This document shows positions 3,909 through 55,598 of a DNA stretch of 64,000 bases, piece after piece. The DNA comes from Alphaproteobacteria bacterium. Its GTDB lineage: Bacteria; Pseudomonadota; Alphaproteobacteria; Rs-D84. The stretch covers positions 7,776 through 71,775 of the forward strand of contig JAGCOR010000026.1 of assembly GCA_017642585.1 (NCBI GenBank), in the 5' to 3' direction. The position numbers and the translations under genes were made by a program. Each line of letters starts with the position of its first letter. Positions within the stretch are counted from its first letter, which is position 1. A model generated the notes under the pieces. The model searched no databases, was not told the origin of the DNA, and saw only the letters and a program-made list of their open reading frames with translations.

Positions 3909-5206
3909 TGAAAAAGATATTATTATTTTTGTTTGCTTGTTTGGTAACTATCAATGCAACCGCGGCGACATTGATAAACGATACAGAAATTGAATCTGGC
4001 ATTGTTAAAATCATAGAACCTGTGGTACGTGCCGCAGACATAGACACATCCAGATTGAAAATATATATTGTTCGTGATGATGATTTTAATGCATTTGTTC
4101 GTGGTGGCGAAGATATTTACATTTATACTGGTTTATTAAAAAAGATTAAAACACCAAATGCTTTGCGCGCCGTTGTTGCACACGAATTGGGGCACACTAT
4201 TGGTGGCCATATGGTTCAAATAGCGGACAGACAGCGCGCTGAAATGATGCGCACCATGCTTATCCAAGCATTGGGGGTTGGTTTAATGGTTGCAGGTGGC
4301 AATCCAACTGCAGGCATGGGTGTTTTGGCAGGATCGGCAGGTATTGCCCAACAATCTATGTTATCTTTCACACGCGACGAAGAACGCATAGCGGACGATT
4401 TCGCAGTTGATTTAATGGTCAAAGCGAACGAAAACCCAAATGGTTTAATTGAAGTTTTTGAACAAATGCGTGAAATGAATGATGCATTTGAAACACGTAT
4501 CAATCCAAATCGTATAAATCACCCGTTAACCAGTGAACGTTTGAATAATGCAAAGAATAAAATCAAAGGGTTATCAAAAACACCTAAGAAATCTAAAAAA
4601 GAAACCGAGACAGAAAACGCAAATTATGATATTCTGCGCGCTAAATTGATTGGGTATTTAGATAACAAACAAAATGTGTTAACTGTTTATCCATATAAAA
4701 ATAAATCAGATGCAGCCATCTATGCACGCGCAATCGCAAATATGCAGGCCGGCAATTTGGATGTTGCAAAAACGGGCACCCAAACATTAATTGGTCGCCA
4801 CCCTGATAATCCCTATTTTTATGAATTATATGGCGATATAGAATTTCAATACGGACATTATGATGACAGCATCATGGCATATGAAAAAAGTTTAACATTA
4901 TCCAATAATGCGCCACAAATCGAAACGGCTTTGGCTTTGGTTTTAAGCGAACGCAACAAACCGGATGATAAATCACGCGCCACAGAATTATGTAAACATG
5001 TTATTTTAATTGACCCCAGCCCATTGGCATATTGGATATTGGCACGCGTAACTGAAAACGGGGAATCAGATTGGGCTATGGCTGAATTCTATAAAATGAA
5101 CGGGGACAATGAAAACGCAAAAAAATATGCTAAATTGGCCCAGAAAAAATCTAAATCAAATTCTCCCGAATATATCAAGGCCGGGGATATATTAAAAAAT
5201 AAATAG
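3908..5206 (+). CDS. M48 family periplasmic metalloprotease with C-terminal TPR region (BepA/YfgC-like)
   Basis: Signal peptide MKKILLFLFACLV; HELGH zinc motif (VVAHELGHTIGGH); C-terminal TPR-like repeats; ATG overlaps the recG stop (taATG). Confidence 0.75.
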   Translation: MKKILLFLFACLVTINATAATLINDTEIESGIVKIIEPVVRAADIDTSRLKIYIVRDDDFNAFVRGGEDIYIYTGLLKKIKTPNALRAVVAHELGHTIGGHMVQIADRQRAEMMRTMLIQALGVGLMVAGGNPTAGMGVLAGSAGIAQQSMLSFTRDEERIADDFAVDLMVKANENPNGLIEVFEQMREMNDAFETRINPNRINHPLTSERLNNAKNKIKGLSKTPKKSKKETETENANYDILRAKLIGYLDNKQNVLTVYPYKNKSDAAIYARAIANMQAGNLDVAKTGTQTLIGRHPDNPYFYELYGDIEFQYGHYDDSIMAYEKSLTLSNNAPQIETALALVLSERNKPDDKSRATELCKHVILIDPSPLAYWILARVTENGESDWAMAEFYKMNGDNENAKKYAKLAQKKSKSNSPEYIKAGDILKNK

Positions 5207-7130: not shown

Positions 7131-7140
7131 TAACAACAAT

Positions 7141-7170
7141 AAAAAAACCGCCAATTCGGCGGTTTTTTAT
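7141..7170. terminator. bidirectional rho-independent terminator between convergent genes
   Basis: AAAAAAACCGCCAATTCGGCGGTTTTTTAT: a perfect hairpin flanked by an A-run and a T-run. Confidence 0.6.
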
Positions 7171-7176
7171 TTGATT

Positions 7177-22145: not shown

Positions 22146-22244
22146 TTTGACCTCTGGAACTTATATCACATGAATAATACCACAAAACAAAGATATAAAC
22201 TATTAAAAAGCAAAAATCGCCACTTTGGGCGATTTTTGAATTTA

Positions 22245-22264
22245 ATGGGGCGGGCGACCAGATT
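22245..22264 (-). repeat. 20-bp direct repeat identical to the 3' end of tRNA-His (att-like remnant)
   Basis: ATGGGGCGGGCGACCAGATT occurs at 22245-22264 and again at 22419-22438 inside the tRNA-His 3' end. Confidence 0.5.
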
Positions 22265-22386: not shown

Positions 22387-22415
22387 TAACCCCCACCGTT
22401 TTGGTGGGGGTGAAT
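22387..22415 (-). terminator. rho-independent terminator following tRNA-His
   Basis: CCCCCACC GTTTT GGTGGGGG hairpin with a T-run on the minus strand. Confidence 0.5.
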
Positions 22416-22419
22416 TTTA

Positions 22420-22497
22420 TGGGGCGGGCGACCAGATTCGAACTGGCGACATTCGGTACCACAAACCGACGCTCTAACCAACTGAGCTACGCCCGCC
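22420..22497 (-). tRNA. tRNA-His (GTG) with genomically encoded G-1, C73 and CCA
   Basis: Manual fold of the reverse complement: acceptor G-1 + GCGGGCG / CGCCCGC, D arm GCTC-AGTTGGTT-AGAGC, anticodon stem TCGGT/ACCGA with loop TTGTGGT (GTG), T arm GCCAG-TTCGAAT-CTGGT, CCA. Confidence 0.85.
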
Positions 22498-22512: not shown

Positions 22513-22588
22513 TGGTGGAGCTGATCAGACTCGAACTGACGACCCCTTGCATGCCATGCAAGTGCTCTACCAACTGAGCTACAACCCC
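22513..22588 (-). tRNA. tRNA-Ala (GGC)
   Basis: Manual fold: acceptor GGGGTTG/CAGCTCC with the G3-U70 Ala identity pair, anticodon stem CTTGC/GCAAG with loop ATGGCAT (GGC), T loop TTCGAGT, CCA encoded. Confidence 0.85.
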
Positions 22589-24666: not shown

Positions 24667-24698
24667 TTGAAAAGGGAATCGGGGGAAAGGAAGAAAAC

Positions 24699-41562: not shown

Positions 41563-41793
41563 AAAAAATCCTTTTTGTTTTTCTTGTAAAAAATTACGCC
41601 AAAACGGCAACATATTTTGAAAAATGGTTATACGAAAAATCGCGCCATAAAACAAAATTCAAAAGTCAGGGTCCACAAAATGGATTATCCAATAAAAGAT
41701 TCAGTCAGACACAAAATCTGACTGAAAATTTTATCAAAAAACCCCAAAACACTTATGCTTTGGGGTTAAAAATGATACATAATTAATGTATTA

Positions 41794-42114
41794 TTATTTT
41801 TTCTTTGCAACTTTTTTTGCAGGTTTTTTTGCAGCAACTTTTTTTGCAGGAGCTTTTTTAGCAACTGGTTTTTTTGCTACAACTTTTTTTGCAGGAGCTT
41901 TTTTAGCAACTGGTTTTTTTGCAACAACTTTTTTTGCAGGTGCTTTTTTAGCAACTGGTTTTTTTGCTACAACTTTTTTTGCAGGTGCTTTTTTAGCAAC
42001 TGGTTTTTTAACTGCAACTTTTTTTGCAGGTGCTTTTTTTGCTGCTGGTTTTGCAGCTACTTTTTTAGCAGCTGGTTTTGCGCAAGCACATTTTTTCTTA
42101 GAACCAAAGAACAT
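41794..42114 (-). CDS. lysine/alanine-rich histone H1-like repeat protein
   Basis: 106 aa, about 45% Lys, with repeating KKAPAKKVVAKKPVA units; strong AAGGAGA Shine-Dalgarno 6 nt before the ATG. Confidence 0.6.
   Translation of the reverse strand: MFFGSKKKCACAKPAAKKVAAKPAAKKAPAKKVAVKKPVAKKAPAKKVVAKKPVAKKAPAKKVVAKKPVAKKAPAKKVVAKKPVAKKAPAKKVAAKKPAKKVAKKK
41812..42070. repeat. 45-bp tandem repeat, ~4.5 copies (coding; encodes the 15-aa KA repeat)
   Basis: Unit GCAGGAGCTTTTTTAGCAACTGGTTTTTTTGCTACAACTTTTTTT repeated at 41846, 41891, 41936 and 41981 with 1-2 substitutions per copy. Confidence 0.75.
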
Positions 42115-44768: not shown

Positions 44769-45011
44769 TTATAAAGTGTGGTCCGGTGATGGAATAAATT
44801 TAGTAAAATCTTCCAAAGATGCGCCCGTAGATGCCAAAATCTTAGAAATACTGTTTGTAGACGGCCATCTGGGTTGACCTTCTTTGGACCAACGTTTACT
44901 TCTGTTAAATGTTGTTGGATCTAAACCACTGCATCTGGCAAGGCCAGAACAAGACATATGATGTTCCGTTGCAAATTTTTCTATTGCCTGCCATACATCT
45001 TCATGAGTCAT
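44769..45011 (-). CDS. CI/LexA-type repressor N-terminal HTH domain protein (no peptidase domain)
   Basis: MTHEDVWQAIEKFATEHHMSCSGLARCSGLDPTTFNRSKR...RWPSTNSISKILASTGASLEDF: conserved N-domain of alphaproteobacterial S24-family phage-type repressors. Confidence 0.55.
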   Translation of the reverse strand: MTHEDVWQAIEKFATEHHMSCSGLARCSGLDPTTFNRSKRWSKEGQPRWPSTNSISKILASTGASLEDFTKFIPSPDHTL

Positions 45012-45156
45012 TTTATTTCTCTCCTATATTGGTTTTCCAATTCAACTTTCTAATCATAGTTGATTTTTTGAATAAATTCAACCTGTGTTTATTTGTTTCT
45101 TTTCCTAATACACAACCGGCCATAAAACAACCCAAAAAAATTTTTTGACAAAATAC

Positions 45157-45185
45157 TTGACAAATTGTTTTTTATGTATTACATT
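45157..45185 (+). promoter_or_regulatory. sigma70-like promoter candidate for the sRNA
   Basis: TTGACA (45157-62), 17 bp spacer, TACATT (45180-85). Confidence 0.35.
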
Positions 45186-45191
45186 ACGATT

Positions 45192-45390
45192 CGTCAAAGG
45201 GGAGATTAATTCCATTTGACCAGATGCCAAGCATCTGTCGGGCCCAGAGTTTTCAGACTCCCTCCTACATTCTCTCTCCTCTGGACTTTGGGCCCAAAAC
45301 ATGAAAGTTTAGGATGCACATTTCTTTTTCTCCTTTCCTTCCTTTCAGTGCATCCGAAAAAAATACCGCCAATTTGGCGGTGTTTTTTTA
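45192..45390 (+). ncRNA. candidate small RNA with two CU-rich (anti-Shine-Dalgarno) apical loops and an intrinsic terminator
   Basis: Hairpin CAGATGC-CAA-GCATCTG; stem GGGCCCAGAG/CTCTGG..GGGCCC enclosing CUCCCUCCU; stem GGATGCAC/GTGCATCC enclosing a 28-nt UC-only loop; terminator CCGCCAAATTGGCGG plus T7; no credible ORF. Confidence 0.4.
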
Positions 45391-45402
45391 TAAATTTTCG
45401 AT

Positions 45403-46221
45403 TTACTTTGCAATATGGACATCCATTTGTGGAAATGGGAAATGCAATTTGTTCTTTGGAAATTCTTTGTATATGGTTTCCAAAACCTCTGCACGCACAG
45501 GCCACAAATCTTCATATGTTGTCCAATAACGAATAGTTAATGTAACCGCGCTGTCATCCAACGAAGATAACAAAATCTGGGGTTCTGGATCTTTTAACAC
45601 ACGTTTGTCAGCTTTCAATATCTTCAGGGCCAATTTACGTGCTGCCTCTACATTATCTCCATATGATATAGCGACGGTTAAATCAGTTCTGCGGTTTTCA
45701 CCACGCGACAGATTGGTTATAACACCGTTTGATAACGCACCATTTGGCAAAAATAATACCTGGTTATCAAAAGTATGTAATTCAGTTGTGAATATCATGA
45801 TTTCTTTCACCACACCCATTTTTCCATCAGCTGTTACAATTGTGTCGCCAACACGAAATGGTTTGAACAATAATATAACCATACCGCCCGCCACATTTTG
45901 CAATGTGCCAGACAGCGCCATACCCACAGCCAATGAAGCAGCACCCAAAACCGCAACAATAGATGTCATTTGAACACCCAAAGTGGTCAAAATAATCACG
46001 ACTACAAAAAATTTCAACGTGATATTAAGAAATGATAAAACAAATGATGCCAACGAAGGTTCTACATTATGACGTTTCATTGTATAACGCAAAGAAGCGA
46101 CTATCTTCTTTACAACCCAGAAACCGATAACCCATATGGCAATCACAGCCAATATTTTCATACCGAAATCAGCAACCATATTACCCAAAGTTGTAATCAC
46201 AGAAGTCAATGTTGCGTTCAT
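45403..46221 (-). CDS. mscS: small-conductance mechanosensitive channel (MscS family)
   Basis: Three TM helices then the MscS beta-domain (FRVGDTIV...GMVVKEIMIF.T). Confidence 0.85.
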   Translation of the reverse strand: MNATLTSVITTLGNMVADFGMKILAVIAIWVIGFWVVKKIVASLRYTMKRHNVEPSLASFVLSFLNITLKFFVVVIILTTLGVQMTSIVAVLGAASLAVGMALSGTLQNVAGGMVILLFKPFRVGDTIVTADGKMGVVKEIMIFTTELHTFDNQVLFLPNGALSNGVITNLSRGENRRTDLTVAISYGDNVEAARKLALKILKADKRVLKDPEPQILLSSLDDSAVTLTIRYWTTYEDLWPVRAEVLETIYKEFPKNKLHFPFPQMDVHIAK

Positions 46222-48114: not shown

Positions 48115-48123
48115 AAATAAAAT

Positions 48124-48152
48124 AAAAAACCGCCGTTATGGCGGTTTTTTGT
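48124..48152 (+). terminator. rho-independent terminator
   Basis: AAAAAACCGCCGTTATGGCGGTTTTTTGTT. Confidence 0.6.
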
Positions 48153-48164
48153 TATTCGTATTGG

Positions 48165-54562: not shown

Positions 54563-55564
54563 ATGAAAAAAATTAGAGTCGCAATTAATGGTTTTGGCCG
54601 CATAGGTCGTTTGGTTTTGCGTGCCGCATTGGAATCTGGACGCAAAGACATTGAATTTGTCGCCGTTAATGATTTGATGCCTGTTGAACAAAACGCATAT
54701 TTATTACAATATGATTCTGTGCATGGCAAATTGCCAATGGATGTAACGACCAAAGACGATTATTTATTGGTTGGCAAACAAAAAATCAAATGTTTGTCTG
54801 AACGTGACCCGTCTAAATTGCCATGGAAAAAATTAAAAATTGATGTGGTTATGGAATGCACAGGAATATTTACCAGTGCCGACAAAGCACGCGTTCATAT
54901 TGATTGTGGCGCAAAACGCGTTTTGGTTTCTGCCCCATCTACTGGTGCAGATAAAACTATCGTATTCGGTGTAAATGAAAAAACTTTGACCAAGAAAGAT
55001 ATTATTGTTTCCAACGCATCTTGCACAACAAATTGTTTGGCACCTGTGTTAAATGTTTTGGATAAAAAATTTGGTATCATTGACGGTTGGATGACCACAG
55101 TTCATGCCTATACTGGCGATCAACAATTATTGGATAAAAATCATAAAGATTTCCGTCGCGCCCGCGCCGCGAATTTATCTATGATTCCAACCAGCACAGG
55201 CGCAGCCAAAGCAATCGGTTTGGTATTACCAAAATTGGCTGGCAAATTGGACGGCATTGCAATACGCGTTCCAACACCAGATGTATCGGTCGTCGAATTG
55301 GTTTTGAATATGAAGAAAAAGGTTAAACCAGAATCTGTAAATACCGCTATGTTCGCAGCCCAATCTGATATTTTGGGATTCACCGATATGCCTGTGGTAT
55401 CTATCGATTTAACCCACGATTCACACAGTTCTATATTTGATGCAACATTAACCAAAGTCGTTGACGGTAATGTATTACATGTTACGGCTTGGTATGACAA
55501 CGAATGGGGATTTTCAAATCGTATGTGTGATACCGCGGTCGCAATGGGAAAATATATTGCATAA
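54563..55564 (+). CDS. gap: glyceraldehyde-3-phosphate dehydrogenase
   Basis: N-terminal INGFGRIGR Rossmann motif; active site SNASCTTNCLAP. Confidence 0.9.
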   Translation: MKKIRVAINGFGRIGRLVLRAALESGRKDIEFVAVNDLMPVEQNAYLLQYDSVHGKLPMDVTTKDDYLLVGKQKIKCLSERDPSKLPWKKLKIDVVMECTGIFTSADKARVHIDCGAKRVLVSAPSTGADKTIVFGVNEKTLTKKDIIVSNASCTTNCLAPVLNVLDKKFGIIDGWMTTVHAYTGDQQLLDKNHKDFRRARAANLSMIPTSTGAAKAIGLVLPKLAGKLDGIAIRVPTPDVSVVELVLNMKKKVKPESVNTAMFAAQSDILGFTDMPVVSIDLTHDSHSSIFDATLTKVVDGNVLHVTAWYDNEWGFSNRMCDTAVAMGKYIA

Positions 55565-55570
55565 AATTTA

Positions 55571-55598
55571 AAACCGCCGATATGGCGGTTTTTTGTTA
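55571..55598. terminator. bidirectional terminator between gap and zapA
   Basis: AAAACCGCCGATATGGCGGTTTTTTGTT. Confidence 0.6.

Follow-up and report, generated by a model that had tools for sequence, protein, structure and literature searches.

The DNA analysed here, called the window throughout, is a stretch of 64 kb from an alphaproteobacterium of the order Rs-D84 (assembly GCA_017642585.1, contig JAGCOR010000026.1). A gap of 391 bp in it separates an open reading frame (ORF) for an 80-aa helix-turn-helix (HTH) protein (44769-45011, minus strand) from mscS (45403-46221, minus strand). Comparison with homologous loci strongly supports the view that the plus strand of this gap, at 45186-45389, is a real stand-alone small RNA (sRNA) gene, and that it represents a new family. 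With moderate confidence we explain its product as a trans-acting RNA, the two long loops of which would pair with translation-initiation regions (TIRs) and occlude the Shine-Dalgarno (SD) sequence and the start codon; the HTH gene and a histone H1-like (HC2-like) gene are the candidate targets, and the HTH gene may take part in a feedback. The initial annotation had located a candidate sRNA in a 390-bp non-coding gap between a CI-like gene and mscS, which was right as to the place and one base short as to the size. The parts of the unit are as follows.

45145-45150, plus strand: second TTGACA(AA) box, 12 nt before the -35 box, with an A/T tract ahead of it (UP-like); the AAAAATTTTTTGACAAAATACTTGACAAA block is conserved in the family
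45157-45185, plus strand: sigma70-type promoter from a promoter scan, TTGACA at 45157-45162, 17-nt spacer, TACATT at 45180-45185
45186-45389, plus strand: sRNA gene, end-to-end match of covariance model R1 (174 bits, E = 1e-46, model positions 1-186)
45193-45220, plus strand: hairpin P1 (GUCA.../...UGAC) from the folds, with the conserved 5' tail CGAUUC ahead of it
45221-45237, plus strand: hairpin P2 (CAGAUGC-CAA-GCAUCUG) from the fold, optional
45240-45295, plus strand: hairpin P3, which bears loop 1; 17 pairs, 94.5% paired, 14 compensatory
45258-45282, plus strand: loop 1, CUCCCUCCUACAUUCUCUCUCCUCU, complement of AGGAGAGAGAAUG plus AGGAGGGAG; mean unpaired probability 0.89
45312-45355, plus strand: hairpin P4, which bears loop 2; 8 pairs, 97.6% paired, 8 of 8 compensatory
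45321-45346, plus strand: loop 2, UUUCUUUUUCUCCUUUCCUUCCUUUC, a 26-nt pure pyrimidine run containing CUCCUUUC; mean unpaired probability 1.00
45357-45389, both strands: intrinsic terminator ACCGCC-AAUUU-GGCGGU followed by U7, from a terminator scan; 15 pairs; it also ends mscS on the minus strand

Metagenome contigs were scanned for exact matches to 20 bases of loop 1, which gave at least 120 stretches, and viral contigs gave 6. Among the loci gathered from both scans and from fetches anchored on the HTH protein, 108 copies were complete, i.e., included loop 2 and the terminator, and these comprised 95 distinct trimmed sequences of 148-246 nt. Their sources were the rumen, the gut of humans, animals, and termites, and a single sample of activated sludge. 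Within the window, R1 matched strongly at 45186-45389 only, and the gene is present there as a single copy. Three HTH-anchored loci carried the RNA upstream of the HTH gene on the opposite strand (P0004, P0032, and P0101, with 89, 79, and 79% identity, respectively); both loops were unchanged in all three, and the differences in the stems were compensatory changes. Loop 1 was identical in all 70 aligned members, 20 of its bases being fixed by the search pattern, and the core of loop 2, UCUCCUUUCCUUCC, was nearly invariant (57-70 of 70 sequences per column). Conservation in related genomes, which had been proposed as a check, was thus found, the gap element being kept across homologous loci. 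The family appears to have been inherited vertically across the order Rs-D84 (Candidatus Enterousia and relatives). Three IMG/VR contigs classed as viral (L169, L172, and L173) carry the complete host-type sRNA and HTH locus; these are either mis-binned host fragments or prophage-flanking DNA.

The 213-nt stretch from the -10 box to the T-tract folded with a minimum free energy of -74.7 kcal/mol, as compared to -43.7 +/- 4.4 kcal/mol for its shuffles (z = -7.0), none of 200 shuffles being as stable. The fold comprised five hairpins, P1, P2, P3 with loop 1, P4 with loop 2, and the terminator, and not three as counted initially. In a MAFFT alignment of 66 non-redundant members (A2), RNAalifold recovered P3 and P4 unaided, with double changes in 15 of 20 pairs. 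When the five-hairpin structure was laid on A2, 89.5% of the cells were paired, against 31-53% with the 3' partners slid by 1-3 columns; both sides had changed in 36 of 45 pairs, and none of 500 shuffles reached any of the five measures. The corresponding values in A3, in which 70 members were aligned by covariance model R1 and which therefore leans towards the model, were 94.7% against 29-51% with slid partners, and 40 of 43 pairs were compensatory. Helices 1 and 2 of A3, which form P1, were paired at 97% and 87% with changes on both sides in 7 of 7 pairs; helix 3 (P2) was paired at 92.5% with 4 of 4 pairs covarying, and helix 6 (the terminator) at 94.5% with 7 of 7. P2 was lacking in 25-26 of 69 sequences, i.e., in about a third. 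The stem cells contained 267 G.U against 67 A.C combinations (approximately 4:1), and this excess fixes the plus strand as the functional one. With more than 100 homologous loci showing conservation and covariation, chance can be dismissed as the source of the feature; the G.U bias together with the conserved plus-strand promoter makes it an independent plus-strand unit. The proposal of an independent sRNA gene of about 200 nt was in this way borne out by a conserved promoter, a conserved terminator, five covarying helices, and the strand bias.

The sigma70-like promoter of the initial annotation, TTGACA-17-TACATT, was recovered by the promoter scan on the plus strand, and transcription would start at about 45190-45193. 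Among 91 distinct homologous upstream regions the -35 box was TTGACA in 90, the spacer was 16 or 17 nt, and the -10 box was TATATT or TACATT. The second upstream box in these regions was TTGACAAA, situated 12 nt upstream and after an A/T tract. A near-identical promoter style, i.e., an A/T tract, TTATCAAAATAC-TTGACA, a spacer of 16-17 nt, and TATTAT or TATATT, was observed at L009:4459-4512 and L013:5747-5791 (minus strand), ahead of small ACP-like ORFs just after a tRNA. Since the same style precedes other genes in relatives, the sequences suggest that the sRNA uses a strong-promoter form typical of the lineage. At the other end of the gene, the T7-tailed terminator was found as described earlier, with a different sequence: it reads ACCGCCAATTTGGCGGTG and not CCGCCAAATTGGCGG, and the entire element in the window, CCGCCAATTTGGCGG, is bidirectional. 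Similar bidirectional terminators, consisting of an A-tract, ACCGCC, a loop, GGCGGT, and a T-tract, were noted at 7135-7172, 45353-45390, 48117-48154, and 55561-55598. Such terminators give weak spurious matches to RNA models, as at L004:1356-1487, and the covariance-model match at L004 was rejected as a family member, since it consisted in terminator likeness only.

Both long CU-rich apical loops were found where they had been described, and both were predicted to be open. The description of them as purely CU holds for loop 2, a pyrimidine run over all its 26 nt, and fails for loop 1, which reads ...CCU-ACA-UUC... and contains two A. Loop 2 is the sole pyrimidine run of at least 15 nt in the window, and in 200 shuffles no run of purines or pyrimidines was as long, the longest per shuffle reaching 25 nt at most and 16.4 nt on average. 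Read backwards, loop 1 gives AGAGGAGAGAGAAUGUAGGAGGGAG, that is an SD, a spacer of 5 nt, AUG, and then a second SD; in other words, it is the exact complement of AGGAGAGAGAAUG (SD and start codon) plus the second SD, AGGAGGGAG. Loop 2 combines CUCCUUUC with CCUUCC repeats and is in this similar to the generally known anti-SD end of 16S rRNA, a likeness to the textbook sequence rather than to a 16S rRNA of this lineage.

Rfam 15, applied to the window at gathering score, gave two tRNAs only. A permissive search (E <= 10) of 44900-45500 gave no alpha-r14, cuckoo, or other anti-SD family; the best match in the gap was GcvB (RF00022) with 25.9 bits, and ylbH and AaHKsRNA82 scored lower. Most of the GcvB alignment comes from the terminator and from a stretch rich in U and C, and membership was rejected, as the score lies below the gathering score of 42. 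A known RNA family was likewise rejected, all Rfam matches being sub-threshold and driven by the terminator. The Rfam scan suggested in the initial annotation thus yielded no known family that claims the region, and the loop sequences were not found in a text search of a literature collection.

The same annotation had compared the architecture with NfeR1/alpha-r14 and cuckoo/CcsR RNAs. The likeness in design stood and the membership did not, since there was no covariance-model match and the cuckoo/alpha-r14 motif CCUCCUCCC was not found in the 204-nt RNA, the loops of which carry CUCCCUCCU and CUCCUUUCC where cuckoo RNAs would have it. The alpha-r14 and cuckoo RNAs are characterized by ultraconserved anti-SD motifs in unpaired regions and by variable stems (PMC10746234, PMC8034643). 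Like the RNA described here, the cuckoo RNAs (CcsR1-4, Rhodobacter) and alpha-r14 (NfeR1, Rhizobiales) are alphaproteobacterial multi-hairpin sRNAs with several seeds per molecule and with an ultraconserved C/U-rich loop motif on drifting stems. NfeR1 has its own sigma70-type promoter, as here, and occlusion of the ribosome-binding site has been proposed for cuckoo/alpha-r14 as we propose it below. The differences are also clear. Their motif, CCUCCUCCC, is about 9 nt, whereas the loops here, CUCCCUCCUACAUUCUCUCUCCUCU and UUUCUUUUUCUCCUUUCCUUCC, are 25-28 nt, roughly three times longer, so that their description as unusually long was apt; the whole loop is frozen and the start codon is covered. 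The cuckoo context CIN1 includes a DUF1127 neighbour, which is absent here, where the neighbours are an HTH_26 protein, mscS, a trmA-like gene, and birA. Finally, the host belongs to the genome-reduced uncultured Rs-D84, unlike the Rhodobacter and Rhizobiales hosts of CcsR and alpha-r14. C/U-rich loops are also known from RepG of Helicobacter, where the loop is in the terminator, and C-rich loops from RsaE/RoxS of Firmicutes, and these pair with G-rich SD or leader regions. Neither has sequence or covariance-model similarity to the sRNA here, the loops of which are much longer.

In the explanation that we favour, the strong and near-invariant sigma70 promoter would produce an RNA of about 200 nt, ended by the intrinsic terminator. 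P3 and P4 would present their long CU-rich loops single-stranded, with frozen loop sequence on drifting stems, as seeds for pairing with purine-rich TIRs: loop 1 as antisense of an ideal SD-spacer-AUG, AGGAGAGAGAAUG, with the second SD AGGAGGGAG, and loop 2 as a mimic of the anti-SD tail. Such pairing would hide the SD and the start codon from the 30S subunit and lower the translation of mRNAs with long GGAGAGA-type sites. Occlusion of TIRs is the mechanism that we infer to fit the sequences best, and the best conserved candidate targets are two genes of the window.

41794-42114, minus strand: Lys/Ala-rich histone H1-like (HC2-like) gene, candidate target; TIR AAAAGGAGAGAAUUAUG complementary to loop 1
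44769-45011, minus strand: HTH gene, 80-aa Cro/CI-type protein, divergent conserved partner of the sRNA; TIR AUAGGAGAGAAAUAAAAUG

The HC2-like gene, the target predicted most consistently, lies about 3 kb from the sRNA, and its orthologues are matched by Pfam HC2. Its TIR reads AGGAGAGA-N-GAAUG in at least 12 distinct loci and is predicted to form 13 bp with loop 1 over the SD and AUG (-19.3 kcal/mol); the only variable base, N, is bulged in the predicted duplex. The site of the window's own subgroup, AAGGAGAGAAUUAUG, has a predicted energy of -14.6 kcal/mol with loop 1. The gene is built of 15-nt periodic repeats (41777-42091), and its 5' untranslated region (UTR), CUAUCCAAAAA...AAGGAGAGA, is conserved across many loci. 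A neighbouring product of 218 aa has an automatic and unverified Pfam match, 'Phage_T7_Capsid'. A histone-like target of an sRNA is known from Chlamydia, where IhtA is reported to block hctA translation by pairing with the start region (PMC4355289, PMC3469542). The likeness to the interaction predicted here concerns a possible wiring only, with no homology and in unrelated lineages. As to the HTH gene, its TIRs are predicted to pair with loop 1 at a mean energy of -12.6 kcal/mol, against -6.5 kcal/mol for other genes (972 non-redundant TIRs from family loci, Mann-Whitney p = 2e-10). A search of 1.19 Mb of lineage sequence outside sRNA genes for 13-mers complementary to loop 1, with one mismatch allowed, gave 14 sites, seven of which were HTH TIRs. 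Among the TIRs of 73 ORFs in the window, which had a mean duplex energy of -9.5 kcal/mol, the HTH gene ranked seventh.

Several results weigh against this explanation. The target predictions mostly pick any strong SD, as complementarity tracks SD strength; the energies of HTH TIRs range from -4.7 to -18.7 kcal/mol, and for the window's own copies of the two candidates the values are no better than -13 to -15 kcal/mol. No complement of the loops of at least 13 nt was found outside sRNA genes in the 1.19 Mb, other than in SD regions, and a long fixed complement was rejected on this ground. The strongest site in the window was the TIR of RseP (peptidase M50), where the purine run GGGGGAAAGGAAGAAAA (24681-24697, plus strand; 17 nt, the window's only one of at least 15 nt) lies at the start of the gene and forms a duplex of -23.2 kcal/mol with loop 2; it was rejected as a target because it was not conserved in four other species (-8 to -16 kcal/mol). 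The invariance of all 25 bases of loop 1 exceeds what pairing with variable SDs demands. That invariance is itself partly a matter of selection, since the copies were collected with an exact 20-mer, and the support free of this bias comes from the three HTH-anchored loci. Moreover, the HTH gene was absent beside five of the sRNA copies (L103, L112, L114, L122, and L141) and beside most termite-gut copies, and is therefore not obligatory.

Where the upstream sequence was long enough, the HTH gene was found divergent from the sRNA in approximately 77 of 96 family copies, the distance between its start codon and loop 1 being 209-323 nt. The 80-aa product has a weak Pfam match to HTH_26 (E = 3.6e-4), and its closest solved structure is 3b7h, a prophage Cro/CI-like protein (E = 0.0095). 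It has 413 homologues, with identities of 70-91% among the best 120 of the 413. The loci of three other homologues (P0069, P0088, and P0081) were without the sRNA, and neither nhmmer nor the covariance model gave an sRNA match in the homologue loci L036-L041 and L045-L048, so the HTH-sRNA pair is not universal. Upstream of homologue P0081, at L045:1654-2000 and L046:1578-2000 (minus strand), we noticed a structured gap of 350-420 nt that lacks the sRNA; a CU-rich stretch, UUUUUCUACCUUCCC, and then a terminator close this gap, which may encode another sRNA in the equivalent position. Two further sites in the window lie between the HTH gene and the sRNA promoter.

45053-45081, minus strand: promoter-like site of the HTH gene from the promoter scan, TTGAAT, 17-nt spacer, TATGAT
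45100-45111, no strand assigned: degenerate copy of a palindrome, TTTTCCTAATAC, candidate operator from the intergenic alignment

In an alignment of 45 non-redundant HTH-sRNA intergenic regions, conserved blocks fitted the position of the HTH promoter, and the TTGAAT-17-TATGAT site presumably drives the HTH gene. Relatives have the palindrome TTTCCTAGGAAA between the two divergent promoters, and TTTCCTA..A was kept in at least 80% of the 45 regions. Our guess is that the HTH protein binds this palindrome. A regulator bound to TTTCCTAGGAAA between the promoters would make a regulator-sRNA feedback pair. Divergent pairs of a regulator and an sRNA are known from gcvA/gcvB and oxyR/oxyS. The likeness lies in an sRNA divergent from a DNA-binding regulator, here also with a conserved palindrome between the promoters; the regulator in those pairs is a LysR protein, whereas the candidate here is an 80-aa Cro/CI-type HTH protein. 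Another comparable arrangement is that of the Brt RNAs of Bartonella, highly structured RNAs of about 200 nt with short HTH genes as neighbours; they are located upstream of trp on the same strand, are present in 2-34 copies per genome, and are reported as restricted to Bartonella (PMC5387305). Compared by description only, Brt/Trp resembles the present system as an alphaproteobacterial lineage-specific RNA of about 200 nt paired with a short HTH gene. The Brt RNAs are tandem and multicopy, whereas the RNA here is divergent from the HTH gene and has a single copy in the window; with a host from Rs-D84 in addition, identity with Brt/Trp was rejected.

The other neighbour, mscS, has a different history. 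Its product is matched by MS_channel domains and is present, identical, on rumen and gut metagenome contigs; relatives at 62-80% identity come from metagenome-assembled genomes (MAGs) labelled Candidatus Enterousia or Alphaproteobacteria (rumen, horse, yak). In 18 other Enterousia-like MAGs the mscS homologues had other neighbours, and no similar intergenic sequence or sRNA was found there. In a MAG from horse faeces (L031:3001-3156, corresponding to 45403-46221 of the window) mscS is internally deleted, only residues 1-19 and 238-272 remaining, while the sRNA gap next to it is still 97% identical. A linkage between the sRNA and mscS was rejected on account of these two observations. Five Enterousia-type loci lack the HTH gene, and in these the RNA still abuts the next genes of the same operon (a 145-152-aa protein and birA). 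In termite-gut copies it is followed directly, on the same strand, by an lpxI-like gene, which in the window is found just beyond mscS and trmA. The downstream neighbours thus vary among copies (mscS, trmA-like, lpxI-like, and others). As the RNA abuts the same operon genes or the lpxI-like gene, the locus is old and vertically inherited. By these comparisons mscS is a lineage-specific, local, and recent insertion beside the sRNA, and the conserved partner of the sRNA is the HTH gene and not mscS.

A few of the 20-mer matches did not belong to the family and consisted of about 22 nt of loop 1 on unrelated stems. Hairpins of this kind were located as follows.

L171:7895-7940, plus strand: non-family loop 1 hairpin
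L055:1015-1060, minus strand: non-family loop 1 hairpin
L174:11591-11728, minus strand: non-family loop 1 hairpin
L117:471-574, plus strand: non-family loop 1 hairpin
L116:713-849, minus strand: non-family loop 1 hairpin
L170:4101-4151 and 4448-4497, minus strand: two non-family loop 1 hairpins

Several of them look like short sRNA genes, each with a TTGACA-16/17-TATAAT promoter and a T-tract, and three are on viral contigs. On the phage contigs L171 and L055 the hairpin comes after a GapR-like gene (Pfam E = 9e-25), and the module also encodes Sipho_Gp157 and a Rad52-like protein. Proteins of the GapR type are characteristic of Alphaproteobacteria and of the phages that infect them, and the GapR-like neighbour is consistent with an Rs-D84 host for these two phages. 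On L174, a viral contig, and L117, a metagenome contig, the loop is situated in the terminator hairpin of an RNA of about 85 nt right after a consensus promoter (TTGACA-17-TATAAT and TTGACT-17-TATATT, respectively), an arrangement that resembles RepG. L116 and L170 are related phage-like contigs with low G+C; L116 carries in addition a loop 2-like loop, UCUCCUUUCCUUUU. No Rfam match was obtained for L117 and L055, deposited phage genomes (INPHARED) gave no match, and a looser viral scan added nothing. The non-family hairpins look like phage or foreign copies of the seed loop of the host sRNA. A bolder interpretation, which we regard as doubtful, makes loop 1 a portable module of 22-25 nt with a single fixed partner in Rs-D84 cells, copied by phages of these bacteria from the host seed into sRNAs of their own and into the 3' region of gapR-like genes, so that a control point of the host is hijacked. 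Candidates for the fixed partner would be the SD-AUG region of the nucleoid gene resembling histone H1 and, alternatively, some specific protein or a site on the ribosome; the host's own copy of the module would belong to an sRNA that is essential and highly expressed.

The main rival to pairing with TIRs is a protein decoy, in which the pyrimidine loops titrate a protein that binds CU-rich single-stranded RNA, such as S1, Rho with a YC-rich rut-like ligand, a cold-shock protein, or a lineage-specific factor. Its logic is the CsrB/RsmZ or CrcZ scheme with a different protein, and we consider it rather unlikely, while taking it seriously. It would account for the freezing of every base of loop 1 and of the loop 2 core, which pairing with variable SDs does not need; for the lack of any extended complementary RNA in the 1.19 Mb; and for the recurrence of the same 22-nt loop on unrelated hairpins in short sRNA genes, those of phages among them, as expected of a portable binding module. 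The very strong conserved promoter, which suggests abundance, also suits a decoy. On the other hand, no result points to any candidate protein, and binding by Rho or S1 needs no exact sequence. Pairing seeds can be equally invariant, as the CCUCCUCCC motif of alpha-r14, and the ACAU of loop 1, as the exact antisense of SD and AUG, would under a decoy model be a coincidence.

The remaining explanations place the function elsewhere than in a trans-acting plus-strand RNA. A cis-acting leader or attenuator, be it a Brt-like riboswitch or terminator for the HTH gene, a leader of the lpxI-like gene, or the 3' UTR of mscS, would fit the position of the RNA ahead of the same-strand lpxI-like gene in termite-gut copies, the short HTH genes adjoining the Brt RNAs of about 200 nt (PMC5387305), and the terminator shared with mscS. 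We judge it very improbable, as both flanking genes are on the opposite strand in the window and in most copies, and the RNA has its own consensus promoter and strong terminator. In addition, mscS is not syntenic in other species and is internally deleted in L031 with the RNA kept, and the downstream neighbours are not constant. Less credible still is a functional minus strand with GGA-rich loops (GGAAGGAAAGGAG, AGGAGGGAG), acting as a CsrA/RsmA-type sponge or as 5' UTR of the HTH gene. The reverse complement does have at least five GGA motifs in hairpin loops, and it shares the strand of the HTH gene, which follows downstream. The gap, however, folds worse in this direction (z = -3.4 against -7.0), and the promoter and the T-tract conserved in the family are on the plus strand; located between the terminator of mscS and the HTH promoter, the minus-strand hairpins would be transcribed only by read-through. 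In the CsrB/RsmZ sponges the GGA loops are on the transcribed strand, whereas here the GGA motifs are on the strand disfavoured by the 267:67 ratio, in which every G.U pair turns into a mismatch, and by the promoter orientation; the sponge was rejected for these two reasons. A feature of the DNA itself, such as a repeat element, a phage attachment site, or a short ORF (for instance the 71-aa ORF at 45314-45529), we hold to be hardly tenable, despite the presence of loop 1 on viral contigs and an AUG in the 5' arm of P4 that opens an ORF through loop 2. The compensatory changes preserve RNA pairs, G.U included; the element is single in the window; and the loops of the phages are flanked by different inverted repeats and by their own promoters, and not by the host 3' arm as the core of an att site. 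The small ORF through loop 2 was rejected because the U-A pair of the AUG has become C-G in five sequences and single-base indels in loop 2 shift the frame.

Elsewhere in the window, a 28-nt direct repeat with 96% identity was recorded at 22237-22264 and 22411-22438, close to tRNA genes at 22423-22496 and 22516-22588 (minus strand). One of the copies overlaps the end of a tRNA gene, and the repeat may be a tRNA fragment or an integration scar.

The order Rs-D84 includes Enterousia and consists of uncultured bacteria of gut and rumen, and all of its members have reduced genomes, mostly below 1 Mbp, with approximately 90% coding density (PMC12306168). A near-frozen RNA kept in a 390-bp non-coding gap of such small and densely coding genomes is likely to have a core function. 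With its two invariant loops and consensus promoter, the family offers a sequence-defined handle on post-transcriptional control in Rs-D84, and it widens the alphaproteobacterial pattern, in which drifting stems carry a frozen anti-SD loop, to far longer loops that also take in the start codon. If the decoy were to prove correct, the family would instead stand for a new class of pyrimidine-rich protein sponge. The reuse of the loop in phage-borne sRNA genes makes it possible to test whether viruses copy the seed of a host sRNA, and, should loop 1 be a portable module, the viruses would be mimicking the seed of a host riboregulator in bacteria with genomes of less than 1 Mb.

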